Shown here one piece after another: positions 2,396 to 61,300 of a stretch of DNA of 64,000 nucleotides. The stretch lies in assembly GCA_958009085.1 (NCBI GenBank), contig OY253670.1, positions 1,302,001 to 1,366,000 on the forward strand. Direction: 5' to 3'. Origin of the DNA: Protoeuglena noctilucae (taxonomy: Eukaryota). Positions within the stretch are counted from its first letter, which is position 1. Every line of letters starts with the position of its first letter. Made by a program: the position numbers and the translations under genes. Below the pieces are notes generated by a model that worked only from the letters and a program-made list of their open reading frames with translations, ran no database searches and was not told where the DNA came from.

Positions 2396-5300
2396 TGAGC
2401 CGTGAGGGCTCCCGTGACCTGCCGGCGTCCACGTCCGGCCGCGTGGCCGCGGCGCGAGGCGGTGGCAATGGCTTCCTCCAGTCCCCTCTTGCGCGGATGC
2501 AGGTGACGCGCACCAGCTCTCTGCATCCTCCGCGGGTTGCAGCGACACGTTATGTCTGCCAGGGCGCAGTCCCTTGAGCGCGCCTGCGAGGCCCACACGG
2601 ACGCGAAGGGCACGGCAGCGACGCGCGCATGCTCGCGGCGCCTGCGACTGCCGCATCGCTTCTGGGATACATGGCATGTGTCTCGCTTCGCAGGAGTTTA
2701 TCGGAAATGTAGCGCGCCCCTCGGAGCTGCCGTCCTTCCAAGAGCGGCCCCGCAGCGGCGGTGCAATCATGACGACCTTGTGGCAGGGCCCCGAGGACAG
2801 CGGAGGCGAGGCCGGCGCCGCGCGTAGGACGGACACTCGCGAAATAGAGCGCCAGGGAAGAATCGGGGCCTTTTTTAGCGTCGCTCGCTTCACACGTCAC
2901 ACCCGCCCCTGTCTCGCAGGGGGCACAGGCCCAGGGCAGACCTGGGGCGCCATGCCCGCGGGAAAACGCGGCCCGGGAAACCACCTCTACCCTGCGCGTC
3001 TCGGTCGCGCGCCAGACATGAACCTCAAGTCCCTGCCGCAGCTCTCGGACCGGTGACCCTTGCGGCTCAGGCTACGAGCGTGCTCTCCACTGCCCTGTTG
3101 GGCCATCCAGCCCGGCTGTCGTCGACTCGACTCTCCTCTTTTCTCCGCCGGCCTCGCCCGCAGCCGCTTCTCTCCGTCCTGGTTGGCCCAGGAGGTGCCC
3201 CCGATCAAGCACCCGGCGGTGCTGGAGCCCCTGCCACGCCCGGGCCTCCCCACCGCGGCCCGCACGGCCACGCAGTTCCTCTCGGCGACGGACGCGAAGC
3301 CGCAAGCTACGCCCTCCCCACTGGGTCTGAACGTGGGCGTCGCCCCCGACGTCCGTGTCTTCATATCTGCGGAGGAGCTGAGGGACCTGGGCCTCCCGAG
3401 CATCTCTGTGGAGAAGCTCAACGTGGCACTCGCCGCACTCAGCCGGGGACTCGACACGCGCACGCTCACCAGCACGGGTGAGGGCAGCGCGGCGGTGGAT
3501 GCAGATGCGGGGCCGTGACCTCATTGGTCGGTGGACGGAGGCGGCTTGTTTCATCTGTGAACTGTGAGCCCGCGGCGTTGTGCGCAGCGGAGGTGTGGAT
3601 GGCCATGCTGCTGGCCTGCAAGGAGGCGCTGGCGCTGGGGTCTCTCGAGGAGCTGATGGAGATTGGGACAGGCGAGGGGAGGGCATGGGGGCTGCAGTGA
3701 TGCTGGAGACGGTCGAGGGGAGATGAACAGGCTTTGTGCGGTGGGGAGCCAGAGATACCGGGGATGAATCGACTGTAATGGCGATACACAATCACCCGCG
3801 CCGTTTGTGACCCAACTCAACCCCGCGTGTCGTGCAGCCCACGGCCACGGCCTGTCGAGCTTCCTGCCGCGCCTGTGGCTGTCCATGATGCACCACGTCT
3901 TGTACAAGCTCCGGGCAAAGCCCCAGGGGGAGACGTACGACGAGGTCGGCCAGGTGCGTGACTACTGTCTCTGGCTGAGCTTGGCACGTTGCTGGTGCGC
4001 GTGCCATGTTTTGACTCGTCCCGCTGGCCGCCCCACCAGGTTCTCGAGACGATGGCGCAGCGCCTGGGCATCCATGTGGCAGTGGCCAAGCAGGCGGCGG
4101 AGACGGCGGAGGCAGAGATGACGGGGGGCGCCAAGACCAACACCCGGGGGTACCGCAAGATGGTGAGGAGTGGGGCGTGGTTATGGTAGTGGAGGCGATA
4201 ATGGTTCCCTTGCGACACGGTGCCAGAAGCCACGCTTCGATAGCCCATAACGTCGCCCATTTCCTCTACCCTCGCAGGTGTCTGAGTTGCAGGGGCAGCT
4301 GGACCGTGTGTCGGAGGACAACGCGCGTCTGGCGGCCCACGCGCGTATGATGGCGGAGGAGCTGAGCGCAGCGAGGGAGGACATGGCTTCTGTCGTGGCC
4401 GTGTGGGGCGACATCGCGTGGCTGCAGGACCGGCAGGACCAGGTGGCGGGTCTGAACCGCCTGCCGGCACGCGTGTCGGAGCTGAGCCACCGCCTGCACC
4501 GGTCCATCCAGCGGGCGGACGAGGTGGCGGGGGAGCACGAGCGCGCGATGGAGGCGAACGAGGCGCTGCGGGGCCAAGTGGGGTCGCTGCAGAAGGAGGT
4601 GCAGGAGCGGACGGCCCAGGCGGGGCGGCTGAGGGCCGAGGTGGAGGCGGGGGCGGCCATGGTCAAAAGCCAGGAGGAGGGGAGGGTGCGGGTGAGGCTT
4701 GGGTGGGAGGGGTTGAGAGCTGGGAGTAAAGGGGGGTGCGGGTGAGGGTCCAGAGGGTGGTGCACAGCGAGTCAACAGTGGCTGACTCCTACAGCTGCGT
4801 GTGGCATCTCTCAAGGTCCTTTTCACGGCAACACGTCTGTGAGATGTGTTAGTACCCTCCTCTTGTCGTCCCTGATCGCAGATCATGGAGCAGCTGGAGC
4901 AGACCGACCGGGACCTGGAGGTACAAACGAGGGACGCGACACAGGCGGCCGCAATTGGGGCGGAGCTGGGCAAGCAGCTGGACCTATCGCAGGAGGCGCA
5001 GAGGAGGGCGGAGGCGGAGCTGGCAGAGGCGCAGGAGAGGGAGAGGGAGCTGTCGGCGCAGCTGCGGGAGGCGCGGACGGTGGCGCAGGACATGGAGGTG
5101 AGCGGGGGTGCGGGGAGGGGTGCGTGGGATGGTAGCACGTGGAAATGGACAAGGGTGCTGGGCGCATCCGCACCCCACTCTCCACCCTCCTCTACCCACT
5201 CTCCACTCAACCCTCTCCCCTCTCCTCCCCGCTCGCAGATCCAGGTGCGTCGCCTGGAGTTGCTCCGCGCCAAGGACGCCGAAGAGACGGCGCACGTCAA

Positions 5301-8300
5301 GGCGCTTTTCGCCGAGATGGACCCGGAGGCGAGGGACCTCGTGGGGGGGTTCGAGCGGGCGCTCAAGAAGGCGGAGGACAAGGCTTTGAAGTGGGTCAAG
5401 CGGATGAAGCTCCTGGGGACCGACCTCGAGACGGCCAAGTGAGGACGCAGGGGCTGACAGTGTGGAACACTGGGAGGGTCCTGGTCATCACTCTGCGACA
5501 TTCGTAGGCTACTGCTCACTGTTCGTCATATGCACAGCTCTGCGGACGAGGACACCTCGTCATCACGGACTCTGGACTGCGGTACCGAAGCAAGGGCTTT
5601 ACTGGTGGTCCCCGCATGCCGCCATCCCCGCATCCCTTCCCTCCCTGCCTTACGCAGGAAGGTGGAGCTGCACGAGGTCCGGCAAAGCATGCAGCTGGTG
5701 CGCCGCGAGGTTCACGCGTCGGTGGAGCAGGTCTGGGCGTGGTCGAGGGACACGGTCCGGCGTGCCCTAGCCGCGTCGGTGGGCCTCGTGCAGGCGCGGG
5801 AGTCGACGATCGAGTCCTTCAAGACGCAACTGGCGCAGACGGAGGCGCAGGTGTGATGGGGGGCTGTATAATGCAGGCAACGTTGGGCACCTCCCACGGT
5901 GCTTGGCCATCGATGGTGCCAGCAATCCCCTGCGTCTGCCCAGGCACCCGCGCCCGCTTGCTGCCCTCCAGCCGCTTGCTGCCACAGGCCCCTCGTCTAC
6001 CTGGGCCGCTTGCCCATTGTCAAGCAGGCATCCATGCGATGCGCACGCACATGCCCTCTCATCGTTTGCAGATGGTCGCGGAGCGCACGAGGTTCCAGGG
6101 CCGTATCGGGGACCTGGAGGTGCTGCTGGCCGCGGCCAACCGCACCATCAACGAGCGGGACGAGGAGATCGTGGGGCTGCGGAAGGAGATATCGGACCTG
6201 AACGCGCAGGCCAAGCGGGTGCGTGACGGCTGGGCTGCAGAGCGGCAGGCGTGGCATACGTGTCGCGTCTCTGACGATCGAATGCAGCGGCATAGCCATG
6301 CTGTGCATGCAACATTTGCCAGCATGTCTTTGTTAACAGAGCTCCCTGCGCTAGAATGGCATGGCATGGTGCCATGTTTGGCCATGCCTGAGAGAGACTC
6401 TGTTGCTGCTCTGCAATGTGCAGTTGGAGGCCGAGCTGGATCGGGAGGTCCAGGAGCGCGAGCGCTGCGAGGGGGTCATCCGTGAGCTGGAGCAGATGAT
6501 CGCTGAGCTGCGGAAGGCGAGTGGGCGGGGGGCGACTGCGATGGCCGGCCCACACGCCCGTCTGCCTGCTTGCAAATGCCCATGCATTTCCCTTGCTCCT
6601 CTCATCATCACATCCTTCCCTCACTGCAGTCGGAGGAGGCGCTGTACCAGCTGCAAGTCGAGCTCAAGGTGAGGAGCGCATGCCAAGTGATGACTTCACG
6701 CAGACAATCACTGTGCTCGGCCACGCTCGATCGGACTCGCGTCACTCGCTTCGGCTGCCAAGACCCCGCGTTTGCTACGCTGCATTTGATACTCTCCATC
6801 ATCCGCGACACGCAGCATCCGTCTCTCATCCACAGGCGCTGCGTCAGGAGCACGCGGAGGTGTTGGGCAAGGCCGAGCGACTGGAGGCGCTGGCGTCCGC
6901 GCAGGCTGACGAGCTGGTGGAGGCGCGGGCAGAGCGCGAGAGGGCGCGGGAGCGGGCCGTGGACGCCGAGAGAGACGTGAGAGGGCCTCTCATGGGGGCA
7001 GCCTATAGAAGCCCGTGCTGCATCGCTGTGCGGCATCGCTCCTGTATTGTCACTGCACGTGTCCAGCCCCTGATCACTTCCTCCCCCCTGCCCAGCTCTC
7101 ACTGCCACCGCCTGGGTCATCCCCGCAGCTCTTCATCACAAAGCGCGCAGCCGAGGCGGCCCTCTCCGAGCAGGAGCGCCTGGCCTCTGCGCTGTCCAAG
7201 ACGACGCAGGAATACGCCAAGGAGAAGGCGCTGCGGCAGAGGTGCGTGACATTTGGGATGAGGCATGCTGTGAGACGTGCCACCATATGTGCATGCGCGA
7301 CGAAGAGATGCCATGAGAGACCCGGCTGGCTGTCTGTTCCGGCCACGCAGCCGCACGGTCGCTGCCACCGCCCCGCACGTTACTGTCGCTCACACGCCGC
7401 TGCGCCGCTGCCCTCTCCGCAGTGCCGAGGCCGAGTGCAACCGCCTCAGCAAGAAGCTCGACCGGATCAAGAGTTCCGGGATGGAGAAGATGGCCTTGAA
7501 ATACAAGGAGCTGCTCGAGAAGGTGCTCAACGCCAAGGTCGGGGCCCTCAAGGCTGCGGCCGATGCCCCGGGGCCAATCGAGTACCCCAAGGGTGGCTTC
7601 TCGAGTCGATCTCCGCTGGTATTGGACGACGAGGGGCATCGGTCGCCGGATCCGACGCATCAGCCGAACCCGGGTGAGGAGCAGGGGCAGTGGGAAGCGT
7701 GGCGGGTGCATGGTGTGTGCGCACGCGCTTCCCATGCATGCCAGCACACCTCTGCGCCTCTGCGAAAGGCGATAGTCCATGCCATGCTATGCAATTTCAT
7801 AACACATTCCGCGTTCTCCTTGCTCCCCCCAGCGTCGGCAGTGGCCGCGGAGATGCTGGGGGAGATCGAGGACGCGGGTGGCCCTGCGTCTGCCTTGATG
7901 AAGGAGCGCGCGGAGCAGACGCTGGCGGCGAGGCGAGCGCGGTCCGAGGCGCAGCTGGAGATCCCGGAAGACCTGCTGGACGACGGTGAGCCACGGATGG
8001 GCAGTCACGACACTGGTCACTGCACTGCACATGGCGGGCAGCTGCGGTTGCCACATTGGGCCAGTGGCCAGCTCCGGATAGCACGCCACGGCTTCCATCT
8101 GCATCGACCCCCGCATCCCTTGTGGGCTCCTGCGGTCACACTGTGGTCCCATGCGGTGGACGATACCATCGTCAAACACAAGCAGCTTGCCTTGAGCCAC
8201 TCTTGCTCCTCATATCTGCAGATCCGCTGTCCAAGCTCTCCGACCAGCAGCTCCTCAACCTAGTCGAGGGCCGCGACCTGAATTACGGCCTCCCCCAGCC

Positions 8301-9972
8301 GCGGCAGGAGGGGCGGCCCGCCTACCACCCCATGACGCAGGACCAGGCGAGGCGCAGCTGCTGAGGGGGAGCCATGGGGGTGGCCCATTGAGCGCAAAGA
8401 CAGGCGTCCCAGCACCTGTGCGAGTGGGAGATTCAAGACCCAGAGATGCCCACGCCTCTTCACCCCTCGCTCAATCACCCTCGTTGTCTCTTCCCTCCTC
8501 AGGTCGCCTCGGGCGCCGCCCCCGGCCCCGCCGTCTTCGACACCGCGGGGCAAGACGCGCCCCGTCCCCCGCTGCACCCCGCGCCCCCGCCGCCCGCGCC
8601 CGCGTTCGCATCCCCGGCGCCGGTGCGGTCGTCGGCCGACGTCTTCGCTGAGGCGTCTGAGGGTGGTGTCCCCGGCCGGCTCCACATCTCCGTGCAGGCT
8701 CCCCGCACCAGCCGCGGCCACCTGCGTGGCGTTCCCGAGGGCGCTCCCTCTGAGACCTTCTCCGACGCTGTGTCGGACGTCTTCAACCCCAATCTCATGG
8801 ACCACCCCCTCGTGAAGCTGGTCGACGCCATTGAGCCCGCCATGCCCGAGGTCGACAAGTACAGGGTATTCCGCGTGCCCCTGGTGAGCCGCGACAAGAG
8901 CAGGCGGAGCATTCATGGGTGTTGCTCTGCATAGCCCCGGTCGATTCGCCCATCACCTGGCTGTGCGTGCCCGCCGCCGCGCTGCGCCCGGTGTGACTCT
9001 GACTCTCCCGCGCGCTCCGCTCGCCGCAGCAAGACGGTTGGGGATCCTGGCAAGTGGACGAGCTCAATTTCCTCGTCATCCGCGGACTCCAGGCCAACTT
9101 CCCGGGCATCCTCATCCCGCCCCTCCCGCCCAACCTCGTCGTCCCCAAGGAGGGGGAGGCGCGGCCCGCGGCGCCACGCATGGCCCTCCCCGCCGCGGCG
9201 CCCCCCGCGCTCTTCATGGTGAGGACCGGACAGGGGCCGTGGCGTGCAGTGGCGGCTGGGCACTGGAAAGGGCTTGGAGACATGCAGTGGCTAGCCGGCC
9301 ACGGACCACGCAGCGTGCATCAGAATGCATCCCTGCCATGATGGCTCGCGCCCTGCATCGCTTTGTGCTGAGAACGCGTCGCCCTGTCCCTGCCCTCAGC
9401 TCGAGCGGCGGGTCAAGGGCGTGGCCAAGTGGACGGAGCGGCACCTCGATCGCCGCACGGCGCTCCCCATGGCGAGCCGCAACGTCAACGCGGACTCAGA
9501 GATTCTCGAGGACATCGCTCTGCAGGCCGACATGAGCCTCCCCCGGGTGCCCGCCCACATCGTCGTCACCGACCCCACCGTGCGCGCTCAGGTGCGGCGC
9601 GGCGCCTGTGCACTGCCCCGCTTGCCAGGTCCCGATGCGCTCCGACATCCACAACCATCCTGTGATTCGCAGTTCTCGAAGCCGAATTACGGCGGCCCCG
9701 ACGGCGACCGGGGCGGGGGAGCGAGCATCCGGAGCCCTGGGCAGCGGAGTCCCCGGCGCCCGCGGCCCATGTCCCCACATCAGGAGGACCTGGAGGTGGT
9801 GCCGCGGTCCGCGTCGCTGGACTCTGGGGCGGTGCGGCCCATGCCGGCAGGGCAGCAGGGGCGCGGGCGTCGCCTGGGAGGCAAGCGCATGTTCGTGGGG
9901 GTCGGCCACCTGAAGAACCAGCGGCAGTCGTCCGACGGCGCGATTGGGCTGCCGCAGATGGACGAATGGTGA
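2396..9972 (+). CDS. Large multi-exon (about 20 introns) coiled-coil protein of unknown function with a Pro-rich C-terminal part; start uncertain (2396 or 2468)
   Basis: Chain of E/A/R/Q-rich exons joined in frame by GT-AG introns and three GC-AG introns (3672-3837, 6517-6629, 8347-8502); ends ...GLPQMDEW* at 9972. Confidence 0.6.
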
Positions 9973-12955: not shown

Positions 12956-15496
12956 TCACCGTTGGAATCCGTCGTACGTGGCAAACAGCGACGTCTGGTT
13001 GATCCGGACCTCCAGGCTGCTGCGCGCCGGGACGGCCGCGGGGTCCTCCTTGCCAGCGCGCAGCGGTTGCGCCTGGGCCGCGGCCGCGGCCCGGCTGGCG
13101 TCGGTGGACATGCGCTTGCTTCGCTTGGCCAGCTCGGCACTCGCGCGCTGGATGGAGGCGCGGAGGCTCCCGGCCTTGAGTCGGCGCTGCGGAGACGAGG
13201 GAAATGGCACAGTCAGCAATCATGGTCGCCTGGCCCGGCTAACTAAGGCAAGCCTGAGGCCTGCCCAATCCTCACCGCTGCCACGAGGTCCGTCAGCTCC
13301 GGGTGCCGCTCCGTGAAGGGCTTCAGCCACTCCGTCTGCAGGAGCAGCTTGGCCTCGGGGCGCGCCTGCGGGTCCGTCTTGAGCATCATCCGCACGAACG
13401 TCACCGCCTCGGGGCTGAAGGCCGTGACGCGCGACAGGGGCTCCCGGACGTCCGCGGGGAGCGTCGCGTCCTCGAGGATGTGGCGCCGGCGCGGGGAGGT
13501 CACGTCCCCGGCCGAGCTGGCGTGCTCCGACACCGACGTGCCCATCTGCGTGCTGGGCCGGGGCTGCCCCGGCCCCGTCGACACGAGCCGCGACCGGCGG
13601 TCCGCCAGGTCCTGGCTCCCCCCGGGCGACCCCGCCTGCAGGCGCAGGAGGATCTCGAGCAGGACCCGGCCCAGCGCCCACACGTCCGCCTTGTGGTCGT
13701 AGGCCGGCAGCGAGTCCTCGTCGATGCCGCGCAGCACGGCCAGCTCAAAGAGCTCCTCGGTGGTGGGCTTGGTGCGCACTTCGGGGGCCATGAACCCCTC
13801 CTGCCCGACGCGGGAGATGGCGGCCTCCTCGTCCCACATGATGGCCATCGACAGGCCCCCGAGCCGCGCCTCGCCCCGGTCGTCAAACAAGACGTGCGCG
13901 GGCGAGATGCGGCGGTGCAGCACGCGGATGCCGTGGAGCATCGTCAGCGCGAGCACGAGGGGCGCGGCGATCTTCTCCACCACGTCCTGCTCCGACTGCA
14001 AGCGCCATGGGCCCGGCACACCGTTCGCTATTCGCCCGGCAGAACCATCGCCGCCACGCCAGCCCCCTGGCGCTAGTCGGGCCTCCCTCCCCGCGCTCGC
14101 CTGAATCTCCAATGCGAGCGACGAACGGTCCCGCTTCTCCTTGTCCCCGGCGGCCCGCTGCAGCTGCAGGACACGTATGGACCGGTGGCTCGTGGTCCTC
14201 TCCCTCGCGCCCGACATGCGGCTCTTCCCCACGTTGAAGGCCTGCTCCAGCGTACCGCCCTCCATGAAGGTGGATACCAGGACAATGCGGTCCGCCGTCT
14301 CCCAGTCGGCGCGGTACTCTGGGAAAAAGCGCGCCCCCGCCAGCATGCGCATGATCTCGATCTCGCGGCGAGACTCGAGCACTTGGAGCGGCGACTGGAT
14401 GTCCTGGAAGCGATGGGAGCCACGGAGAGGGTCGGGGCGAGGGCTGGAGCCAAGGTCGCGCGCACCAAGCTGGCAGCGCGGAGAGGGCACTCAGCGGTGC
14501 GGCGGCGGGGGCGCGAGCGTCTGCGGAGCGCGTCTCCCCGAGCTTACCTTGTGGAACTCCTTTACCATCAGGATTGTCCCCGTCGTCATATCGTACGACT
14601 GGTAGAGCTTCCACGTCGACGCTTTGTGGAACTCCATCCACCGGCCCATGTCCGCCCGGGACAGCGCCCCCTGGGCAGGCACGCGAGGAGAGATCAAACG
14701 TCGCTCCAGCGCGGCGGGCGCGGGCCGGGCGCAGCCCCGGGTCGAGGCGTGAAGCAAGCGTTTGACTGCCCCCTCCCTCCGTGGCCGGCCGCGCGGCCCG
14801 CGGCCCCCGCACCCGCGCTCACCCGATGCAAAATCACCCCCCCGTCCGTCACGCGCGACGGCATCGCTCCGAAGAAGCTCTGCGACGCCAGTCGCGGGTC
14901 CTTTGGCTCGGCCCGGTCCTCTGCGAGGGCGGGGCATTGCGCCGGGCGGTGGGCGGCCCCCTCCACAAACGCCACCGAGGCGTGCGATGACCCCGTCTCC
15001 TGCCGCCCGGGACCTTCAGGGGGCTCCCCCCGGAGGCCTTGGCGGGCCCCATATCTGGCGTGCGGAGCGGCGAGGCGTCCCCGCGACAGTCAGGCCCGCG
15101 AACACTGATCACGATCGAAATTGAGGCGGCAATCTCGCGGCGCGGGGCCGCAGGGTGTGCTCCCGGGCCGACAGCGAGGACCTGGACGCTCCAATGTCTG
15201 CGCGGCGGGCGCGCCGGGGCCGCGGGAGCCCCGAGTCCCGCGCATCGCAGCTGCGACCGTCGACTATTTCGCCGGGCGCCCCGGGCCCGGCCTCCCCCGG
15301 CCCAGCGTCGCTCACCGCCATCATCCTTCGCGCCCGACGACCGGCGCGGGGAGGACACGGGCCTGCGGACGTCGATGGGTCCCCTGCGCACGTTTTCGGT
15401 GTTTAACGGCGCCGCACTCCACTCGTCCTCGCTCGAGCTCTCCTCGGCGCCCTTCTTCCGCCCCCCCTTGCCCCCCAGCAGTCCCCAGAGGGGCAT
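12956..15496 (-). CDS. Ser/Thr protein kinase-fold protein (Aurora/CAMK-like), probable pseudokinase; 5' exon structure uncertain
   Basis: ILMVKE, RREIEIM, FMEGGTL, VLHRRISPAHV, FMAPEV, YDHKADVWALG and DPQARPEA motifs; GC-AG intron 13996-14100. Confidence 0.75.
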
Positions 15497-18800: not shown

Positions 18801-18845
18801 AGCGAGCCCACGCTTGCCGACGCGCTCAAGAAGGGGCGCCGGTGA
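15826..18845 (+). CDS. Ala-rich coiled-coil protein with a C-terminal RG/RGG tract, possibly RNA-binding; 8 exons
   Basis: MARVFNSFDAL... joined through 6 GT-AG introns and 1 GC-AG intron (18303-18427); ends GDGFQEVGGRGRGRGRG...KANPWG...PTLADALKKGRR*. Confidence 0.65.
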
Positions 18846-32762: not shown

Positions 32763-34835
<2,073 letters not shown>

Positions 34836-46402: not shown

Positions 46403-46523
46403 GAAAAATGCTGCGGTGTCTCTGCCATAAGCTGATCTGCCACAAATGCTATCGTCAGAGCAAAGCGTTTGCCAAATAATACAAGACCCACGCTGGCGGA
46501 GCACAGCAGGTGAGGCCAATTCG

Positions 46524-47892: not shown

Positions 47893-50800
47893 ATGTGCAC
47901 GATTGAAAAGATGGAGATCCGGGGCATCCGGTCCTTCAGCCCGCTATCCAGCTCAGGCAAGCACGCTCCCTTGGTTGCTGCTCCTGCCGTCGCGCACGCC
48001 TCCTGACGACATCGACGACGACCGTGCCGTGTCCTTGACCCCGCAGTCATCACGTTCTCCAAGCCCCTGTGTCTCATCGTGGGCCACAACGGCGCCGGGA
48101 AGACGGTGAGTGCCGGGGCGGGACGAGCTGCGCCTTGGCTCTGTCCTCCGGCCCTTCCTAACGCGGATGCGAATTCAATTCGATCTCTCTCAACTCCCCA
48201 GACCATTATCGAGTGCCTTAAGCAGGCCTGCACGGGGGAGCTTCCCCCCAACTGCCGCAGCGGGCACAGCTTCATCCACGACCCGAAGGCGAGCAGGCTG
48301 GGTACATTAATATGCATGTTCTCACCCGTGCACCTGTCAGATGACCCGCTGCGTCGCGTGTCGGGGCCCCGGGGGCTGCTGCACCCTGTCATGGTCTTGC
48401 TCTGCGTGTCGCAGATTTCCGGCGACCACGAGGTGCGAGGGCAGGTCAAGCTCAAGATCATAGGAACGCAAGGCGTGCCCGTGGTCGTCACGCGCTCGTT
48501 CATGGCGAAGCAGACCCAGAAGACGCTGCAGTTCAAGTCCCTGGACGCCAGCCTCACCACGCGGTGCGGGCACTGCAGCAGCCACAGCGCCCGCTGCCAC
48601 CCGCGTGCCCCTCGCTCACTCCGTCGCTTGCGATGTCGCCGCCCGCAGCAAGGAGGGGACTAGCAAGGCCGAGTCCATCTCGTACAAGTGTGCCGAGGTC
48701 GACAAGATGGTGCCCTCGATCATGGGCGTGTCCGAGGCCGTGCTGGAGAACGTCATCTTCGTGCACCAGGAGGACTCGACCTGGCCGCTCGCAGAGGGGT
48801 CGGTGCTGAAGAAGAAATTCGACGACATCTTCGCCGCCACCAAGGTTGGTGGGCTGTGCCGCCTTACACCGCCACTTCGACGTTGCCAGCCGCTGCGCTC
48901 GCTCACCGCGTGCCTCTGCTCGCGCGCCGCAGTACTCCAAGGCCTTAGAGCAGCTGCACCGCCTGGTGAAGGAGCAGAAGGCGCTGGCCAAGGAAGCCAA
49001 GCTGAAGCTGGAGACCTGCCGGGTGGTCAAGGAGCAGGCGGAGAAGCTGCGGCGGGACATCCGGGACAACGGTGAGCGCCTTGACCGACGCCCAGGCTCG
49101 TTTCAGTGGACCTGGGCGCCTTGCGTGCCCTGCGAGGTCGCATTGATGCCCAGCAACCTGTGAGCCTTCTTTTGTGTCCGCAGAGCTGAATGCGCAGAAT
49201 TTCCAGGAGAAGATTGAGGCGGCGCGTGCGCGCGTGGAGACGCACAAGGAGCAGCTGCGCGCGGCCAACGAGAAGCTCAGGCGCATCGCGGAGCTCTCGC
49301 AGGAGATCACCGACCTGCAGGCGCGCCACGAGGTGCAGCACAAGGTGAGCGGGGAGGGGGGGTCGTTCGACGTTGGCGACACGTGGTTATGGACGGGTGC
49401 GGGGTTGGGGCTGTCGAGGAGCTGGTTTGTGACGGTGGGGCGTGCTCTGCTCGCAGCAACTGACCGAGCTGCGGACGAGGATGGGGCCCCAGGCGGACTT
49501 CAAAGAGACGCTGGAAGAGCTGGAGAAGGCGAGGAGCTGTGCGCAGGCTGGGCTCTGGACCAGATCACTCAGTAGCATGCGTGATGACTCATCGCGTCTC
49601 TCCGGGTTTGTCCTCAGGCGATGGACGAGCAGGTGGAGGGCAAGATGGCGGCGATGCGCGCCGAGATGCACAGCCGGCGCCACGACATGTCGCTCAAGGG
49701 CCAGGAGCTGGACGCCATGAAGGCGGCATACTCTGACGCATGCAAGCGGCAGGGGCGACTGGTCGCCGAGGTGCGGCTGGGCTGGGGTTGCGGTCAGCGA
49801 TGCATCTTATGGGATCGTTGACTGAGACGCGACGTGCATGCGATGCCCACTTCAGCGGGTGGAGATTGGGTCGTGTGTTGATGGCCGCCTCTCTCGGCAT
49901 GCGCAGGTGGATCAGCTCACGGAGCAGGTCAAGCAGCGGGACGCGCTCCTCTCGGCGGAGGGCTCCAAGCTCGGCGTCACGGGCCTGGGCCTCCACGACG
50001 GGCGGCTGTCCGACGACCAAGTGCAGCACGGCCTCCGGTCCCTCTCAGCCCTGGTGAGCAACCTTCAGCGACCTCTCGCTCGGCCCTTCTGATCCGTGCG
50101 TGTGCTGAGTTAGAAAGGTGCGGATGAGTCTTATGACCCAACCTCGCGTGGTGCTGTCGCAGGCGGACCAGTGTGTCGCGGAGCTCCAGGCCATGAAGGA
50201 CCGTCACCGTCGAGCGGACGAGGCGCTGGCGGCCAGGGTGGACGCGGCGACGGCCGAGCTCACGGCCGCGTCCGAAGTGCGCAGGGCGGCCCTGGGGCGG
50301 AGGGAGGCCAGCGACCGCAAGGCCGCGGCGCTGCAGGCGCGGCTCGCGGGGATGCCGGCCACGGGCGATGCGCTGCGGGAGGCGGAGGAAAGGGAGAGGC
50401 AGGCGAGACCGCGCGCTGTGAACCTGCATTGCACGTGCGCTCGGCGTGCCACTGCCCAACCAACACATGTCGCACCCCTGCAGGCACGCGAGGTGTTGAT
50501 GCGCAAGCAGCAGGAGCTCTCAGAGCAAGACCTGGAGTCGAGGGCCGACGAGCTGGTCCTGCAGGTCGCGGACGCCACGCGCAAGGCGCAGCGGCTGCGG
50601 GCGCGTCGGGACCAGCTGGCCCAGGCGGCCGCCAGCACCGCGCGGCTCAGGCGAGGGCCGGGGACTGGCACGCGCTCATTGCTACCACCCGCCCGGGTCC
50701 CTGCGCGGCTGACGTGCGATGCTCGTCTGCTCGTCGCAGGGTCAAGCGCCAGGACCTGGCCTCGAAGGAGCAGCAGCTGGAGGGGGTCGTGACGGGCGGC

Positions 50801-53800
50801 CGGGCCCAAGTGGAGGCGGTGCTGGGCGTGGCGCCGGGGGCGGACCTGCCGGCCCCCGTGGCGCTGGCGGACGCGCTGGACGCGCGGGCGGGGGAGCTGG
50901 GCGCGGAGGCGGAGCGGGTGGAGGCGCGGGCGCAGGCGGTGACGCACCGGTGCCGCGAGCACGAGGCGGCCCTGGCGGTGGTGCGGGGAGAGGCGGCGCG
51001 GCTGGGGGCGGAGGAGGAGTCCCTGCAGTCGCAGCTGGACGCCGTCATGGCCACGCAGGCGAGCGCACGGCAGCGCCGAGGCAGCCTGGGCAAGAAGCAA
51101 TGACGATTTCCGCTGGGTACCCCGGGTGTCAAATACGCTGCTACCCTTGGCACACTAACTGCGTCGTTGCTGCTTCCCGTCCCTCGCAGATGCCGGGTCC
51201 CTCGGCGCCCCCGCTGCAATCTCAGGCGGGGTTTGAGCAGGCCCTCCAGGACCTGGAGGAGCGGCTGCAGGCGCAGATGACGGCACGGGAGGGCCAGACG
51301 GTGCTGATTGGGACGTGGGAGGCCTTCGCCAAGAGGGGGCGGAAGCACGGCAAGTGCGCCGTGTGCCAGAGGGCATTCCACGGCGAAGAGGAGCTCCACA
51401 CGTGAGGGCAGACGCAGACAGAGGCCGCTGGTGCGACCCCATGGCTGTCACTAGCCCTCGTGGAATGCGGGTGCCGAGGCAGCAGGGGGTGCAATTGCTT
51501 TCACATGGCTTGGTCGCCTTGCATCCGGTGTACTTGCTGCCTTGCATCTGTCTGAGTCGGCTGTGCTCCCCCGCAGGTACGTGACGTTCTGCGAGCGGGA
51601 GCGCGCGAGGCTGCAGGAGAGCTGGCAGCAGGGGGACGCGGAGGTGTCCGCGGACCAGCGCCAGATGGAGCGTTTCAAGCTGGCGCAGCCGCTTTGGGCG
51701 CGGCTGCGGGAGGTGCAGCAGTCGCTGCTGCCGGACGCGCGGACCCGCGTGGCGGAGCTGGAGGCCGAGCTGGCGCGGCACAAGGAGCGGCAGGAGGAGG
51801 CGGACGGCGCGGCAGAGCAGGCACGGGGGCGGGCGCGGCGGGCGGCAGAGGCGGCCGCGGGGGTGGGCGCGGAGGCCCGACGTCTGGCCAAGGAGGCAGC
51901 TGCTTTGCGGGAGGAGGTGGGGGAGCTCGAGGCGCGAGCGGGGGCGGCGGGTGGCCCCGTGGGCGACGCGGAGGCGGTGTCGCGGGAGCTGGAGGCCGAG
52001 GAGGCGCGGCGCACGTCGCTGGAGCGGGAACGGGAGGAGGCGATGCGGCAGCTGGCGGCGCTGAAGGACGCGGTGGTTGCGGCGGGCAATGCCTGGAGGG
52101 ACGCGAAGGAGGAGACGGCGGGGGTGCAGGCGAGGGGACTAGCTGGCACGACTTGGCTGGGCTGCATGCATAGTGGTGGTGCCGAGAGCGGGGGCTTGCT
52201 CGTGGGTCCTGTATCATATCGGCGCCTGTCCTGTCGCTTCGTTCGCTTCGCTGCGTTGGTAGGACTCTTCTCGCCCGTGTGTCCCCAGGCGCGGCTGCGT
52301 GAGGGCGATGCTCTGCGGGAGCAGCTGGCGGAGGTGGAGCGGGAGCGGGCGTCGGCGCTGGCGGAGGCGGAGAAGGCCGGGGCGGCAGAGGCGCCGCTGG
52401 AGGCGCGGCGCGAGGAGGCCCGGGCGCAGCGGGCGCAGGAGCGCGACGCGGCTGCGAGGGCCGAGGCTGCAGGGGAGGAGCGGCTGCGTGCGGCGCGGGC
52501 GGTGCTGGACCGGGTGCGCCAGGCGGCCGAGGCGGTGGCGGCTCTGGAGAAGCGGGGGGCGGCGGGGGAGCTGGCGGCGCTGGGGCGTGAGCTGCAGCGG
52601 CAGGAGGGGGCGCAGCGAGCGCTGGAGGAGGAGATGCGGGCGCTGCAGGCGGACCTGGACGGGATGGCGCAGAGCGTGAGCGAGACGGAGGCGATTCGAA
52701 AGGCGATGCAGGAGGCGGTGGACCTGCGGCGGTTGGAGAAGGACGTGGCAGCGCTGGGGGCGCGGGTGCGGGCGGCGCTGGAGCAGCGGGAGGCGGTGGG
52801 GGACGCGCGGGACATCCAGCAGGCAGTGGCGCGCGCGGACGCGGCGTCGCGGGAGGCGCAGCACACGCTGAGCATGGCGGAGGGCGCGCAGGCCACGGTG
52901 CGGCACCAGGCGCAGCGGGCCAAGGAGGAGCTGGCGGACGTGAAGTATCGGGACGTGGACGAGCGGTACCGGGCGCAGAGGTGAGGGGAGAGGCTGTTAC
53001 GGTCTATTGCACGTGACTGGGGCCCAGGGTGACACGCGCGCATTGGTCGTGGCGCTGCTTGCGAGCGTCGCACAGGCATGTGGCGCCGGCCATGACGGTG
53101 GTCACGGCGTTTGCGCGTGGTCCCCCGCAGCGTGGAGCAGCACACGGCGGAGATGTGCATCTCGGATCTGGAGAAGTACTCTCGTGCGTTGGAGAAGGCG
53201 TTGCTGGCGTTCCACGGGGAGAAGATGGAGGAGATCAACCAGACGATCAAGGAGCTGTGGCAGCGCACGTACCGCAACCAGGACATCGACTCCATTCAGA
53301 TAAGAGCCGAGGCCGACACGACGTCGGCGAGGCGGTCGTACAACTACCGTGTGGTGATGCACGTGGGCGGGACGGAGCTGGACATGCGGGGGCGGTGCTC
53401 GGCGGGGCAGAAGGTCCTCGCCTGCCTCATCATCCGCCTCGCGCTGTCCGAGACCTTCTGCATCAACTGCGGCATCCTGGCCCTGGACGAGCCCACCACC
53501 AACCTCGACACGGAGAACGCCGCCAGCCTCGCCGAGGCACTCAGGCCAGTCGATGGCGGGGGCAGCGCGATCCGCGGCGGCGCTTGGAGAACGCGTGCGC
53601 GTACTTGCAGCAGCGCAGTGCGCCTGTGGTAGCGCGGCCCATGCAACGCGCCCAGTAGATGACCGCGCGTTGCCTGGGCCCAACGCAGGGCCCTCATGGA
53701 CGCCCGCCGTCAAAACTCCAATTTCCAGCTGGTGGTCATCACGCACGACGAGAGCTTCGCGCACAGGGTGGGCAGCCGGGAGCTGGCGGACCACATGTGG

Positions 53801-54109: not shown

Positions 54110-55018
54110 ATGCCCAAGCTCGTCGACGTGACGACGACCCTCTGGGGCATGGAGTACTCCGTGCATGGTGACAGATGATCATGACATCGGGCACTGGGAG
54201 GGGGCGCGGGGGGGACGCGAAAGCGCGGCGCAGGGAGGCCATGCATGGGCAGGCCTCGCCGCGTTCAATTCGCAGCCGCACGCTCTCTGTAACCCGCGAT
54301 TTGGCACGACATGATACAAATGCGATCGGCCGGCGAACATCCTTCCATACTCGGCGCTCCCAGAGGTGCCGAAGAGCCACCGCGACGAGGTGGCGGCCGT
54401 CTTCCCGGGGATGGACATGACGGGCGCGCTGGTGGTGCCGACTTGCCAGCAGGTGCATATGTCTCGGAGAAGACCCGAGGGACTGCTCGCGCGATGCCTC
54501 GTTTCCTCGCGGCGGTCGCCGGGCTCCTCAAAAGTGGTTGCGATCGCACGCAGTCTCGCCTCGACCTCGTTAACGTCGGCCCGGACATTGAAGCGGAGAA
54601 GGACTATTGTCTCGAGCGCTTCATGAGCTGGGCATCGCAAGTCTGCGATACGCTCGTGGCGCGCGGGTTTTGGGCGGACTTCATCGACCCATGCTCGGGG
54701 CTCCCCATGGCGAGGGCCGCGCGATCCCTCTGGCCCAGCAAGCGTTGCATTCCGCTTCATGTGTGGCATCAGACGTCCTCCGCGCCCTCGCAGCGGTCCA
54801 AGGTGAACGGGGGCGTCTACCCGGAGGTGCAGGCGCTCTCGACGCTGCTGAACTACCGCACCTCCAATGCGGGGTGCTGCCGCGTCGTACTGCACCCCAA
54901 GTGGGCCACGTCCGTGTACCCCGCGAGTCTCTTCGCCAAGGCGCCCCTGGAGGAGCTCCTTGCCGCCATCAGGGAGGCGGAGGCAAAGCTGGGCGGGGCG
55001 AGCCATGAGGCAGGGTGA
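54110..55018 (+). CDS. MMADHC: Cobalamin trafficking protein CblD/MMADHC-like; start uncertain
   Basis: MEYSVH, VPTCQ, EKD..LERF..WA..VC..L...GFWADFIDPCSGLPM, GCCRVVLHPKWATSVYPASLFAKAP. Third intron GC-AG, 54710-54793. Confidence 0.85.
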
Positions 55019-55337: not shown

Positions 55338-58300
55338 CTATGCCAGGGTGCCCGCGGCTGCCCTCTGCTGGAGGCTCGCGAGGGCGTTGAGCTGGTCGCG
55401 GTACCGGGACTCCCATTCGGACCGCCGGCGCTGGATGCCCGACAGGCGCTCCTTCAGCCAGGACAGCTCTGCCTGCAGCGTCTCACGGCTCCTGAGGGGG
55501 ACTCGCGGGGAGGATGCGGGCGTGCGGTGATGACGGTACCGGGGCAGGTGGATAAACGGACATGGAGAGACTCAGCAGCGGGGCGCATGACCAGTCATTG
55601 GTGATCAGTCATGGCGCCTGCCATGCTTCCCACCTGATGTCGCGCGAGAAGCTCTCCTCCTCAGCGGCCAGCAGCGTGTGGTCCCGCGCCAGCGTATCCA
55701 CCTCGGTGGCAATGCGGCCCGCCTCCCCCGATGCAGCACGTGGGCCCAGCATCGCACGCAGCCTCAGGATCTTGTCCCCCGCGCGCTGTGCCGTGGCCAC
55801 CACCGAGTCTGCCAGCTGCTGCATGCGTCGGACCTGGCCCTGCGAGACCCCGAGTCCCTCAAATGAGATAACCAAGCCAGCCGCGACCCTTCTGCACATG
55901 TGCATGCCCCATGCAGCGTACACAGGCCTGCAACGAACTCCCCACGGCTCCTGCTCACCTCCGTGGGCGAGCGGCTCGCCCTCGTCCCGCTCGTGCCGCG
56001 GCTGGGCCCCTCGCCAACCCCACGCTGTGCCCCCCCCAGCTCCGACTCCAGCTGCCGCCGGACCGGGACGCCGGCGGGGGGCAGCCGCGCGGCGGGGGCG
56101 TCGCTGAAGAAGCTCCCGTTGGGCCGGGCCGGGGAGGCGAGGGCCGAGACCGGGAGACTCCCCCGGCCGCTGGGGGTCCGCGGGGCTGGGCGGGGTGCCT
56201 GTGGGGCCCAGTGAGAGCGAAGGCATGGGTGGAGTCGAGGGTCGAGGAGGCGATGTTGGGGGTTGTTGTTCGTGAAGTTCACTCCTTGAGGAGTGCAAAC
56301 CTCGCGTGCCCTCCCGCCCCTCTGTGCATGATGCCGCCCCTCACCTCCCTCACGGCGCTCCTCGCCAGCTCCTCCGCCACTGCCCGGGCCTCCTCCACCT
56401 CCGCAGCGTACTCATCCAGTTCCCGACGGCGCCTCTCCGCCTCCCGGTGCGCCGCCACCACCTCGCCCTGCCTGTCCACCAGCGCGTCGGCCGCCTCCGC
56501 CACCCTTGCCTGGGCGTCGCTCAGGGCGCCCCTCTCGGCGTTCAGGTCAGCCTCTCGCCGCTCCAGTCGCCGCCACTGCTCCTGCAGCTCCTCTTCCCGC
56601 GCCGCCAGGCGCTGGCGTGCCTGCGGGAGTGGTGTTGTGCTGGCAAGATCGTGCCATTCCCATGCCGCCCTGGTAATGGCAGTGCGCCACCACAGATGCC
56701 CTCGTGTCACGCATTCCAAGAGCAGACAGTCACCTTCAGGACCTCCACGTTGTGTGTGTTGGCTGCCGCCGTCATCTCGGCCTCCCGCTCGGCGATCTCC
56801 ACACGCATGCGCTGGAGGTCGGCCTCGCGGCGCGCGAAGGTATCGTGCTCTGCCCGCAGGTCGGCCTCTCGCTGCACCAGTGCCAGGCGCTGCGGCCAGG
56901 ACGAGGGCACACGGCCGTGAAGGTCCGGGCGGCGGATGCGCATTCGTGCAGTGGGCAAGGTGAGCGGCCCCAGCAGACCACTGGCAACGCGTACCGCAGA
57001 CGTGCCTGCCCTGCTCGTCCGCGGCCCTCACCGTCGCTTCGATTTCCTTGCGGCTGGCATTCAGCTCTTCCTCCGCCTGTTTGCTCTGGCGCTCCAGCTC
57101 CCTCGCCCTGGCCTCTGCGCGCTGCTCCGCCTCCTCCAGCTGCCGCCGGCGTTCCTTGAGCTCACTGGGGACGGCAGCAGGGCTTAAGCTCACGTCGCCG
57201 ACAGCCACGGGCGACGGGGCGGCAGGCGGGGAGCAGTGCATCGCCACAAGCTGCTCGTGCACTAACAGCTCACCTCTCCTTGCGCTGGCCCTCCTCCCGC
57301 CTGCGCTCTCGCTCTGCCTGCACCTCAGCTTCCCTCTCCTTGGCACGGCGCAGGGTCGCCTGCAGCGGTCAAGGTCAGCTCCCGCCTCGGTGACGCCCCC
57401 TGCCAAACAGTGGCAGCAGTCGCAGCCGCACATGCGATGCACGTCCATGACTCCGCCCCTGCCCACCTCAGCCTCGCTCGCCATGGCCCGCGCCTTCAGG
57501 GCCGTCTCTGCCAAACGCTGCTCCTCCCGGGCAACCTCTCCCCGCCGCGTCTCCACCTCCTCTCCCGCCGCCTCCAGACGCCGCTCCAGACGCTCGGCGC
57601 GCGCCACCCTCCGCTCCACCTCCTCCCGCTCCGCCGCCACCTCGGCCCTCTGCAGGCATCGCACGCGAGTCACGGTCCCTTGCTTACTCGCCCCGTGCGG
57701 TCACCCGTCAGCGTCACCCATCAGTCACAGCCTCGAGCGATGCGCACATGTCCACGTAGGCATCTGCAAATCCTCCTGTGCCAGGCTGTGGTTTCTGGCA
57801 TCACACCTGCGCCTCCACGTCCCGCGCCTGCTCCTTGGCTGCGGCCACCAGCTCCTCTAGGCGCGCCCGGCCCCTCCGCAGCGCCTCCCTCTCCTCCGAC
57901 ACCCGCCTCGCGTCCTCCTCCACCCGCAGAGACGTCTCCTGCAGCAGCCGCTCCCGGGCCTGCAAATCCGCCTGCGGCAGGCAAGGGCGCGGGCGACAGA
58001 TTTCCAAACAGCCAGCAGGCCAGAGCGGAGCAGCAAGAACGTCGCAACCCTCTGCTCGAGCTTCAGCTCCGCGGCCCACTCGCCCCCGCCGCTGCAATCT
58101 CCGCCTCCCGCTCCGCCATGGCGGCCCTGGCAGCATCGGCCTCCCGCTGAACCTCGTTGGCGAGGTCGCCCTCCCTCTGCGGACGCGCGCAAGGCGATGC
58201 ATGGAGCACGTCGGCGAGATGCAACATGCTGCGTGGGCCCAGCAGCCAACCCTGTGCGCCACCCATGTCGCGACTGGCATGCGTCAGCACAGAGGAGGGC

Positions 58301-61300
58301 CTCATCTGCGCTCCCCACCTGCGCGGCGCTGGCGTTGCGCGCAATGGCCCCCTCCAGCGCCCGCTTCTCCTCAGCCAGCGCCTGCAGCCGCTCCTCCAGG
58401 CGCTCCGCGTCCGCCCGCATCTCCGCCACCTGGGCCGCCAGGCGACGGTGCTCGGACTTCTGAGGGAAGTAAGGAGCCAGTTTGACGCTATCGGTGACAT
58501 TGCCAAGTCCGCGCATCCTTCCGTAACAACAGGCAGCACCCCCCCGGCGGTGTCCCACGCTCCCCACCTGGGCCAGCAGTCGGTCCTCGTCCTTGGCCAC
58601 TGCCTTGGCCCGCGCCTCCACCGTCGCCACCGCCGCCTCCCGCGCCGCGAGCGCCACCTCCGCCTGCCGCACGAGCTCCTCCCGCCCCGGCAGCTCCTCC
58701 AGCAGCGCAAGGCGGTCCGCGTGCCTCGACACCTCGGCCCTCACCGCCGCACGCTCCCGCTCCACCTCCAGGGCCAGCGCCGTCCGCGCCGCGTCCAGCA
58801 CCGCGCGCTCCTCCGACAGCCGCCCCGCGGCCTCCTCCTGCTCCACCGCCAGCTCCTCCACCCGCCGGCGCCGTGCCCCCGCCTCTGCCGCCGCCTCCCG
58901 CGCCTGCCGCACCTCCGCCCGCGCTGCCGCCACCTCCTCCTCTGCGGCCGCCTCGCGCCGCCTCAGCTCCTGCTCCCTCGCCTGCAGCGCGCGCTCCCGC
59001 AACTCCACGTCCGCCAGCCGCGCCGCCTGCGCCTCCGCCTGGGAACGGTGGCGCTGCTGCGCCTCCGCCAGCGCTGCCTCCCGTTCCCTCAAAGCTGACT
59101 CCAGGCGCGACGTCTCCGCAGTCGCCCGCTGAAGCTGCACGCCACGTGGGGCCAAGGCACAGGATCGGCCACGGCACGTTGCGCGACAACTCCGTGAAGC
59201 CTCGGTACCACCACGCCATGGCCCTCGCCTGCTTTTCCATCGCCTCCACGTCCCGCTTGGCACGCTCCAGCTCCACCTCGTCCTGCATCACCACCTCGGC
59301 TTGCGCCAGCTTGGCCGACAGCACCTCCACTTGGGCCCGCAGCTCCCGACACTCCAGCGCGGCCTCGTCCCTCTCTGCAGTCGCGGGTCGTCTTGCTCGC
59401 AAACAGCGCAGTAAGGCGTGTCTGCGTGTCAAAAGCTCTTGCTAGGCATGGACAGACGGGCTCAGCAGATGGGCTGCCGCCTCCCTCGCTGACGCTCACC
59501 GACGTCCATGGCACGCCGCCGCTCGGCCACGTCCACCGCGGCGCGCTCCAGCTCCTCCTCCCGCGCCCGCAGCGCCGCCTCGGCCCGCCTCGCCTCGCGA
59601 TCCCTCTCCTCGGCCGCCCGCTCCCGCCCCCCCACCGCCGTCTCCCGCTGTGCCAGGGCCGCCCGCTCCCTCTCCGCGTCCGCGCTAAGGTCCAGGTACC
59701 GCTGCCGCTCGCGGGCCGCGGCCTCCCGCTCCCGCTCCAGCCTCGCCGCAGCGTCCCTCGCCTCGCCCTCGGCCCGCATGACCGCCTGCTCCCGCGCCGC
59801 CACGCTCTCGGCGCGCCCCGCCATGGCCTCCACCCACCGCTCCCGCTCCGCCCGCGCCGCCGTTTCCTCCCGCAGCGTCCGCAGCCCGCCCGCCAGCGCC
59901 TCCTCCCGGTCCGCCAGGTCCTGCTCCATGCGTGTCAGCCTTGCCTCCTTCTCCCTGACGTGGGCCATGAGGCGCTCGGTGCGGGCGTGCTCGTCCCTCA
60001 CGGCCGCCTCCAGCTCCAGCATCTCCCGGTGCTTGGCCTGCACCGCCTGGCCCGACCGCGCGTGCCTCTCCAGCCCCGCCGCCACCTCCTCCTCCGCCGC
60101 CCGCATCTGCGCCACCGCCGACAGCGCCGCGCTCGCCTCCAGCTCCAGGGCCACCGCCCACTGCGATGGGCAAAGACGGGAGTGAACTCAGGACGAGCCT
60201 CAACCGCGGAGCACCGATGACAAGTCACCCCTGGACCATCGCAGCAATGGTGCGGTCCCTCTGCCGCCCCGCAGCGCTCGCCTGCTGCACGCGTCCCTCC
60301 CGGGCCATGAGCTCCGCGCGCCGCCCCTGCAGCAGCGCGGCAATCTCCTCCGGCGACCCCTCGCTCCCCGCCGCCGCATCTGAGACGGCGCGGGAGGGGC
60401 CACCCGCCACGTCGCCCGCGCCCGCCATCTCGTCCACCAGGGCTTGGATGGCCCCCAGGGCGCGAGATATGGGCCGCGCTTGGGGCCCCAGGTCCGCCGC
60501 GGCTGGGCCATCCCCGGCGCGCCCGGGGCGCAGCTGTGCCTTGTACGTCCGCCACAGCGCCTGGGGTCGGACCATCGCGGCCATTGGTTTTCCACCAGCC
60601 AAGCGTGTCTGCTTCATCCATGTTAACCTATTTCAGCGTATCCTCACCTGCACCCGGTGCTCCTGCGCGTGCAGTGCCTCCTCCAGCGACTGCAGTGCCT
60701 CCCGGCCCGCCTCCACGGCACGCCCCTCCCGCTCCACCCGCGCCACCGCCTCCGCCACCCGCTCCTCCACCTCCCTCACGTTGCGCTCCGCCTGCTCCCG
60801 CTCCCGCGCCAGCACGCCCGCCTCCGCATCCCGCCGGTCTGCCGCCACCGCCTCTTCCCGGCGCTGGATCTCCACCTGCAGCGCCTCCAGCCTGCGAGGC
60901 GCGGGGAGGACGCACCATGGCATTGAAGCTGCGATACCCAGCGAGGGCAGCGCAGAAGCGGACAGAAAGGCACTCGGCGTGTTGCGAGATGCGTCGCGTC
61001 GCAGTTGGTCCCAGTCCCCCCCACCTCTGGAGGGCCTTGGTGGCCCGCTCCTCCCGCTCCTGCGCAGTGGCCGATGCCTCGTCCGCGCGCTTCTCCCGAG
61101 TCAAGACGTCCTTCTCCCGGTCTCCCAGGACCTTCTCCCGGGTGTCCAGGCGCAGGGCCATGCGCTCCTGCTGCGCCTCGCTACGCTGCGGGTGTTGGAG
61201 TAACACAAAGCTGCTAGGGAGACGCTCACGGACACAACGGCGGGGCCCTTAGTCATACAAGCGCCATGCATGGAGTGGTACAGGTGTCGCCGTCACACCA

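Follow-up and report, generated by a model that had tools for sequence, protein, structure and literature searches.

Introns with GC rather than GT at their 5′ border make up 0.4–0.9% of introns in model species, in which a stronger match elsewhere in the 5′ splice site offsets the mismatch between C at the second intron position (+2) and U1 small nuclear RNA (snRNA) (Sheth et al. 2006, PMC1557818). Some algae exceed this share by far. Iwata & Gotoh (2011, PMC3033335) reported GC-AG shares of 39.6% in Aureococcus anophagefferens, 22.2% in Micromonas pusilla, and 7.7% in Chlorella sp., tied these to G+C content, and found the 5′ end of U1 to be canonical in Aureococcus and Micromonas; a 2024 preprint (bioRxiv 10.1101/2024.10.30.620910) gives 14–17% for Aureococcus and ~14% for Pelagomonas. 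In Emiliania huxleyi, GC donors reach ~60%, as checked by expressed sequence tags, RNA-seq, and reverse-transcription PCR, and GT-biased gene models mis-predicted junctions (Feldmesser et al. 2014, PMC4028052). Here we analyze a 64-kb stretch of DNA from Protoeuglena noctilucae (the window: all 64,000 nucleotides taken from contig OY253670.1), in which 36 of the 148 introns of a curated set (24%) have GC-AG borders, the other 112 having GT donors. The most probable explanation, to which we assign a probability of roughly 0.8, is that these introns are of the ordinary U2 type, in a marine green alga that is GC-rich and intron-dense and whose donors carry C at +2 about one time in four. The phenomenon itself has been known since 2011–2014, and this is one more instance of it; the original prediction from this sequence, which counted about 33 GC donors among some 150 introns, had rightly suspected that raised GC-donor use was already described for GC-rich algae (PMC3033335, PMC4028052, and the preprint).

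The window resembles the GC-rich algae of Iwata & Gotoh and of the preprint in both base composition and intron borders. Those algae have G+C contents of ~66–70% and GC-AG shares that exceed the ~1% of model species 10- to 100-fold, and the 24% of the window lies within the range of their shares. The window has a G+C of 0.655–0.725 per 4 kb and ~68% overall; as a single window it combines a G+C of at least ~65% with a GC-AG share far above 1–2% and so belongs with them in the sense of Iwata & Gotoh. It differs in gene architecture and lineage. Intron-rich nuclear genes are densely packed on both strands, with 4 to 26 introns per gene model, whereas the pelagophytes of the preprint have fewer than one intron per gene. 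The best named matches of its proteins, at 65–71% identity, are core chlorophytes (a pedinophyte, Micractinium, Astrephomene, Raphidocelis, and Coccomyxa) and not those species, and its GC-AG share is about 3 times that of Chlorella at similar G+C (PMC3033335). Emiliania huxleyi is likewise a GC-rich (65%) marine alga that keeps the acceptor AG, and its GT-favoring gene models mis-predict junctions, as did a GT-only decoder here; however, it is a haptophyte in which GC is the majority donor (PMC4028052). Model eukaryotes (PMC1557818; Kralovicova et al. 2011, PMC3167603) have U2-type GC-AG introns with the same compensation and acceptor signals as those of the window, but at 0.4–0.9% and with the core GCAAG, whereas the core here is GCGAG, in line with the GTGAG of this alga. 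In the accessible parts of PMC3033335 and the preprint we found no analysis of context dependence, which is tabulated below, and a literature search, outside which most subscription journals lay, returned no report of an intron-dense core chlorophyte at this GC-AG level.

GC…AG borders are indeed removed from RNA in this alga. We aligned the contigs of four marine metatranscriptome runs (X1–X4), which contain 35–47% of the sampled words of a 10-kb stretch, to positions 34900–54899 and found 58 joints, 15 of which were listed, one of these being chimeric. The 14 remaining listed joints and one junction derived from contig pieces comprise, within the ambiguity stated for each, 13 GT-AG and 2 GC-AG junctions. 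One GC-AG junction lies in a UBE2S-like ubiquitin-conjugating enzyme gene (37673..37760, +, donor cag/GCGAGA, the slash marking the exon–intron border) and is found in contigs of runs X1, X3, and X4. The other is the last intron of RAD50 (53545..53688, +, cag/GCCAGT), for which the contig pieces 53129–53541 and 53686–54035 leave a single GY-AG reading and which also sits in a gap-free protein alignment. For neither junction does the stated ambiguity leave room for GT. The chimeric joint connects 38516 to 50894, a 12,377-base skip seen in three runs with 21 letters on its shorter side; it most likely arose when the assembly fused GC-rich coding stretches of low complexity, and was set aside. 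A 30-letter loose end at 52284 did not match the end of the upstream exon and was dropped, and another at 39306, a near match to 39079–39108 that would support a GT junction, was left uncounted. Run X2 gave short contigs of low depth that match the genome without interruption and in some cases cross intron positions (39164–39578 runs across the intron 39438..39548); this "RNA" library also holds DNA or unspliced precursor of the alga, which makes X2 uninformative on splicing.

A second line of direct evidence comes from the organellar release factor gene prfB. The protein P0379 (437 amino acids), encoded on a jgi contig of 2,582 nt, matches the query prfB exon at 100% identity and is collinear with 11 genomic blocks of the gene. 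We take it to be transcript-derived because a contiguous open reading frame call on genomic DNA could not have yielded it. When all junction pairs that reproduce P0379 exactly were enumerated, each intron had one GY-AG solution, giving 7 GT-AG and 3 GC-AG introns. The latter, all on the reverse strand, are intron 1 (32096..32181, aag/GCGAGG), where the decoder described below had misplaced the donor, intron 4 (31542..31625, ccg/GCGAGC), and intron 7 (30714..30847, cag/GCGAGT), across which the Pfam RF-1 profile also continues from position 25 to 26. RNA and cDNA together fix 25 junctions, 20 GT-AG and 5 GC-AG, and at all 5 of the latter the nearby GT donors that would have undone the original prediction are ruled out.

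Homology confirms nine further GC introns. In Pfam searches with individual exons, the profile positions flanking the junction are unbroken across four GC introns, namely prfB intron 7 above, RPL5 intron 1 (22421..22680, −, cag/GCGAGG; Ribosomal_L5e position 17, a split codon, then 19), RPL5 intron 4 (21339..21519, −, cag/GCGAGT; Ribosomal_L18_c, ~35 to 36), and an MMADHC intron hand-read from three frames (54710..54793, +, atg/GCGAGG; MMADHC positions 211 and 212). A model of the ATP synthase gamma subunit gene atpC with two GC donors, in intron 1 (32841..33508, +, cag/GCAAGT) and intron 3 (33812..33915, +, aag/GCGCGT), aligns without gaps to ten fetched homologues. In the S-adenosylmethionine carrier gene (SAMC), both GC junctions fall in gap-free conserved stretches: 43107..43259 (+, cag/GCGAGC) in an alignment of nine homologues and 43361..43446 (+, cag/GCGAGC) within the conserved VVKQRMQ/TGEF. 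In RAD50, intron 1 (47957..48046, +, cag/GCAAGC) is spanned without a gap across FSP…/VITF. Homologues also revealed the RAD50 exon 48202–48288 (TIIECLK…HDPK), which the first decoder run had missed and which ends AAG/GCGAGC; the intron that follows it, intron 3 (48289..48414, +), is supported by Pfam AAA_23 (34–64) and by the gap-free junction FIHDPK/ISGDHEV.

The complete 17-intron model of RAD50 has no gaps within 10 columns on either side of 15 of its 17 junctions, including six of the eight GC junctions. Beyond those already named, three GC introns of this gene thus lie within gap-free alignment: 50403..50483 (+, cag/GCGAGA), which would stay in frame and open if retained, 50651..50739 (+, cag/GCGAGG), with a conserved ..RL/R.K.. 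across the junction, and 52130..52288 (+, cag/GCGAGG). For the remaining two, 49529..49617 (+, aag/GCGAGG; frameshift if retained) has one gapped column beside the junction in poorly conserved coiled coil, and 51059..51189 (+, cag/GCGAGC; retention would bring a frameshift and a stop) falls where the alignment is too variable to be informative.

To gauge chance, we wrote a Viterbi gene decoder, trained on the window, that scores donors by positions −3 to −1 and +3 to +6 and ignores +2. It called 141 introns, of which 100 had GT, 31 GC, 8 GG, and 2 GA. Because G is as frequent as C in the DNA of the window, the GG and GA calls gauge the level of false positives, and several of them are GT donors displaced by three bases; one GG "intron" in the tyrosine phosphatase (PTP) gene, 25178..25530, is in fact two GT introns. 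The decoder recovered 14 of the 15 RNA junctions and 22 of the 25 junctions fixed by RNA or cDNA, and the GC share stayed between 22% and 30% over all penalty settings. On the sense strand of the gene models, AGGTGAG was used as a donor at 23 of 24 occurrences and AGGCGAG at 22 of 35, against 1 of 7 for AGGGGAG and 0 of 10 for AGGAGAG. When donors were restricted to GT, the parse score fell by 262 log units on one strand and 218 on the other, and genes were split or truncated at the GC sites; RAD50, a long coiled-coil gene, and the SAM-carrier gene were split.

These results bear on the possibility that the GC donors are annotation artifacts, nearby GT donors being used instead or the "introns" being coding sequence. 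Some decoder calls were indeed wrong: the GC call at 6249 is better placed at a GT donor lying 30 bases farther upstream, and four other GC calls were too weak to keep. Retention of three of the decoder-only GC introns, moreover, would leave the frame intact and open. Against this stand the five GC-AG junctions that RNA or cDNA fixes with no GT option and the nine settled by homology. GT-only models of atpC and SAMC lack conserved protein segments that are present when GC is allowed (in atpC the N-terminal exon is lost and a universally conserved 20-residue exon skipped), and in UBE2S, prfB, and RPL5 the GT-only borders disagree with RNA, cDNA, or Pfam continuity. Retention would cause a frameshift or a stop in 30 of the 36 GC introns, and the +2-blind decoder chose G only 8 times and A twice at a position where it chose C 31 times. 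Mis-annotation is ruled out at the 14 confirmed GC introns and unlikely at most of the others; as a general account of the GC donors it is very improbable.

The curated set itself comes from a sensitive decoder run that allowed only GT and GC, corrected by the RNA, cDNA, and homology results. The dropped GC calls are 1850..1944, 1990..2641, 18551..18802, and 26095..26428, and the models of PTP and MMADHC are manual reconstructions. By tier of evidence, GC accounts for 5 of 25 introns fixed by RNA or cDNA, 9 of 20 supported by homology or Pfam, and 22 of 103 called by the decoder only. The donor forms are GCGAG in 32 cases, GCAAG in 2, and GCGCGT and GCCAGT in 1 each, the same dominant form and variants that the original prediction had listed. 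Its counts by gene were largely reproduced: RPL5 has 2 GC introns of 4, atpC 2 of 4, and RAD50 8 of 17, with one each in UBE2S and MMADHC and one in SF3B2, the last found by the decoder alone. For prfB and SAMC the predicted 3 and 2 GC introns were found, but among 10 and 5 introns rather than 9 and 6. A predicted GC intron in PTP was not confirmed, the 51-nt call of the decoder at 25972..26022 having vanished in the sensitive run. ClpP has none among its 5 introns.

What sets the GC donors apart is their context. We scored each donor of the curated set by its matches to AG/GYRAG at the five positions flanking +2. All five match in 30 GC and 24 GT donors, four in 6 GC and 74 GT donors, and three in 0 GC and 14 GT donors, the share of C falling from 56% to 7% and then to 0%. 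Of the 36 GC donors 30 thus have the full context, compared with 24 of the 112 GT donors. The contrast holds among the independently confirmed junctions (10 of 14 GC vs 5 of 31 GT; Fisher p = 5e-4), and it is not built in by the method, since the decoder is blind to +2. The remaining 5′ splice-site positions are hence closer to the U1-complementary consensus in GC than in GT introns. Weak cores tell the same story from the other side: GNGCG serves as a donor in 9 of 21 cases with T at +2 and in 1 of 29 with C, GNGGG in 10 of 15 with T and 0 of 24 with C, and GNGAC in 7 of 7 with T and 0 of 5 with C. Other features of the two classes are alike, with median lengths of 112.5 (GC) and 117 (GT) bases and mean acceptor scores of 3.74 and 3.58. 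In both, +3 is mostly G (96% of GT and 92% of GC donors), the cores being GTGAG and GCGAG and not GTAAG, and −1 is G in 92–100% of donors.

The dependence on context offers a simple explanation. Strong GC-biased substitution pressure would convert T at +2 to C, presumably by point substitution, at the cost of one base pair with the 5′ end of U1 snRNA. The loss would be tolerated only where the other contacts are at consensus, that is, an exonic AG and G, G/A, A, and G at +1, +3, +4, and +5; at such donors T and C would be nearly interchangeable, and C would rise toward its neutral level. The fraction C/(C+T) is 0.63 in intron interiors and 0.87 at third codon positions, and at +2 of full-context donors it is 0.56. 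Compensation under GC pressure is supported because GC donors need the full context and because C at +2 (56%) comes close to the intronic 0.63. The original prediction had named GC pressure with compensation by the exonic AG as one of its options, and this is the one that the data favor, the full AG/G.GAG context being needed. Its other option, a spliceosome that tolerates C at +2 broadly through variant U1 or U6 snRNA or changes in U1C or Prp8, is not supported, given how narrow the tolerance is.

That second option deserves a closer look. If the splicing machinery were altered, through a variant U1 5′ end, the U6 ACAGAGA box, U1C, Luc7, or Prp8, C at +2 would be recognized like U. C at 30 of 54 full-context donors, near the neutral expectation, implies that selection against C is very weak, and base modifications or proteins of the U1 small nuclear ribonucleoprotein have been proposed for Aureococcus and Micromonas pusilla (PMC3033335). 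However, the tolerance is narrow, weak cores being used with T and almost never with C, and a U1 that paired with C would need no such compensation; the two published extreme species, moreover, have a canonical U1 5′ end (PMC3033335). An Rfam scan of the window returned no RNA family at gathering score and no snRNA gene. We regard altered machinery as quite unlikely. A related idea, that U and C at +2 are effectively neutral once the other five donor positions are at consensus, the later, U6/Prp8-dependent inspection of the donor having lost its preference for U, is also unlikely, if slightly less so. Were it true, it would amount to a lineage-specific relaxation of the catalytic-stage check of the 5′ splice site, beyond mere U1 compensation, and the alga would be a natural system for separating U1 recognition from later steps.

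Comparison with relatives was possible at one usable orthologous donor in their read-through open reading frames. At the position of prfB intron 7, the frame P0380, 81% identical, reads GGQ/VRG and thereby shows a GT donor, where the window has GCGAGT; the switching between GT and GC that the original prediction proposed to look for in relatives is seen at this single position. Some relatives lack introns of the window: P0003 and P0025 have no atpC intron 3, L001 has none of atpC introns 2 to 4, and P0230 has no counterpart of the last RAD50 intron. L001 (3839–4822) and L002 are identical 19–20 kb metagenome contigs of a relative (G+C 68.6%, protein identity 78%), in which atpC residues 30–356 form one intronless open frame where the gene of the window has three introns. 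Even among related GC-rich green algae, intron density therefore varies greatly. Other metagenome loci have 45–48% G+C and 49% identity.

Introners have been reported in Micromonas pusilla and Aureococcus, and recent introner-like mobile-element insertions that bring their own GC donor would be another source of GC-AG introns. Those two hosts are also the extreme GC-AG species of Iwata & Gotoh (PMC3033335), and the absence of some of the window's atpC and RAD50 introns from relatives would suit such an origin. But introner-type introns, sharing sequence with one another, were not found: an all-against-all blastn of the 148 introns gave no same-strand hit at E ≤ 1e-3, only one opposite-strand reciprocal pair of 32 bases, and the GC and GT introns are alike in length. 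This origin is scarcely credible here. U12-type splicing is excluded by the donor sequences, none of the 148 having a U12-like donor (RTATCC or GCATCC). RAD50 intron 1 (47957..48046) has a TCCTTRAY-like box in its last 45 bases, and in the intron that follows, with donor GTGAGT, CCTTCCTAAC is seen by eye near 48150–48165. Because both donors are U2-type (GCAAGC in the first), we read these boxes as chance or ordinary branch sites.

GC donors might in addition have been selected as weaker sites for regulated retention or alternative splicing. GC donors are reported to be enriched in alternatively spliced genes (PMC2490688), and Emiliania huxleyi joins many GC donors with frequent intron retention (PMC4028052). 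In the window, however, GC introns are found in housekeeping genes whether their expected expression is high or low, as the counts for RPL5, atpC, RAD50, and ClpP illustrate, and contigs are no measure of splicing efficiency. As an addition to compensation under GC pressure, such a role seems rather remote.

Several points weigh against the reading as ordinary, compensated U2-type introns. The RNA evidence covers only 15 of the 58 joints, and P0379 would lose its independence as evidence if it came from a gene-model prediction. The decoder is the sole source for 22 of the 36 GC introns; tested against known junctions it was right at 22 of 25 and at 10 of 14, and its errors in prfB, SAMC, PTP, MMADHC, and RAD50 were corrected by hand. 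The neutral benchmark of 0.63 comes from intron interiors that may themselves be constrained. Recognition by canonical U1 and U6, with U1C and Prp8 likewise unchanged, is presumed. Finally, this is a single 64-kb window of one genome, from which a genome-wide share is an extrapolation.

The GC introns called by the decoder lie, outside RAD50, in the following genes. In a coiled-coil gene on the forward strand there are three: 3672..3837 (cag/GCGAGG), called by the +2-blind decoder, causes a frameshift and a stop if retained, and the GT-only decoder splits the gene there; 6517..6629 (aag/GCGAGT) causes a frameshift, the GT-only run skipping an exon; and 8347..8502 (cag/GCGAGG) carries an in-frame stop, the GT-only run again splitting the gene. 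A protein kinase gene has 13996..14100 (−, cag/GCGAGC), a weaker case called by the decoder only, which stays in frame and open on retention and could be coding. The gene at 15826–18845 has 18303..18427 (+, cag/GCGAGT), with a frameshift and a stop if retained. The CASP-like golgin gene has 27155..27241 (+, tag/GCGAGT) and, from the sensitive run, 28794..28928 (+, cag/GCGAGG), each with an in-frame stop; the exon downstream of the second matches Pfam CASP_C 83–144. The SF3B2 intron (41003..41177, −, aag/GCGAGG; decoder only) gives a frameshift on retention, and PDB searches with its flanking exons found nothing. A golgin-like gene on the reverse strand has 45450..45529 (cag/GCGAGC; frameshift) and 45819..45907 (cag/GCGAGT; frameshift and stop). 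The gene at 55338–63999, with introns on the reverse strand, has 57972..58083 (ggg/GCGAGT), another weaker case, decoder-only and with a poor exonic context, whose retention gives a frameshift and a stop, 59135..59228 (cag/GCGAGG; frameshift), and 60161..60281 (cag/GCGAGC; frameshift and stop).

The gene at 22838–24719 (+), which has no Pfam match, carries GC donors in 4 of its 7 predicted introns, all from the sensitive decoder run: 22880..23251 (acg/GCGAGC; seen in that run only, in-frame stop if retained), 23321..23484 (gag/GCGAGT), 23738..23825 (cag/GCGAGC), and 23978..24056 (cag/GCGAGT), the last three causing a frameshift. Each of its predicted exons contains a short recurring peptide, of the type S/T-x-Y-x-x-x-F (such as SEYRKSF, SLYTQDF, SLYADSF, and STYRSAH), and the same motif occurs in both exons flanking 23321..23484.

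Pfam scans of open reading frames placed the named genes of the window as follows: RPL5 at 21.3–22.8 kb (−), PTP at 24.8–26.4 kb (−), the CASP-like golgin at 27.1–29.8 kb (+), prfB at 30.0–32.4 kb (−), atpC at 32.8–34.8 kb (+), ClpP at 35.1–36.5 kb (−), the UBE2S-like gene at 36.9–38.1 kb (+), SF3B2 at 38.4–41.8 kb (−), SAMC at 42.7–44.1 kb (+), and RAD50 at 47.9–53.9 kb (+). RAD50 is flanked within ~8 kb by two cobalamin-handling genes, an MMAB-like cob(I)alamin adenosyltransferase gene at 46824–47042 (−; Pfam Cob_adeno_trans) and MMADHC at 54.1–55.0 kb (54110–55018, +), which together suggest a B12-using alga. Contigs of run X2 have a poly(A) end after 34966 and a poly(T) start before 34983; these fit polyadenylation sites of the convergent genes atpC (+) and ClpP (−), 17 bases apart.

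With these results, an intron-dense green alga joins the few GC-rich algae known to have GC-AG introns in very large numbers. For annotation they mean that gene finders that accept only GT, or strongly prefer it, will leave about one junction in four of this alga broken or truncated. For its splicing they mean that C at +2 is nearly free of cost in a perfect donor context and almost forbidden elsewhere, a pattern that fits mutation pressure together with U1 compensation, without new machinery.

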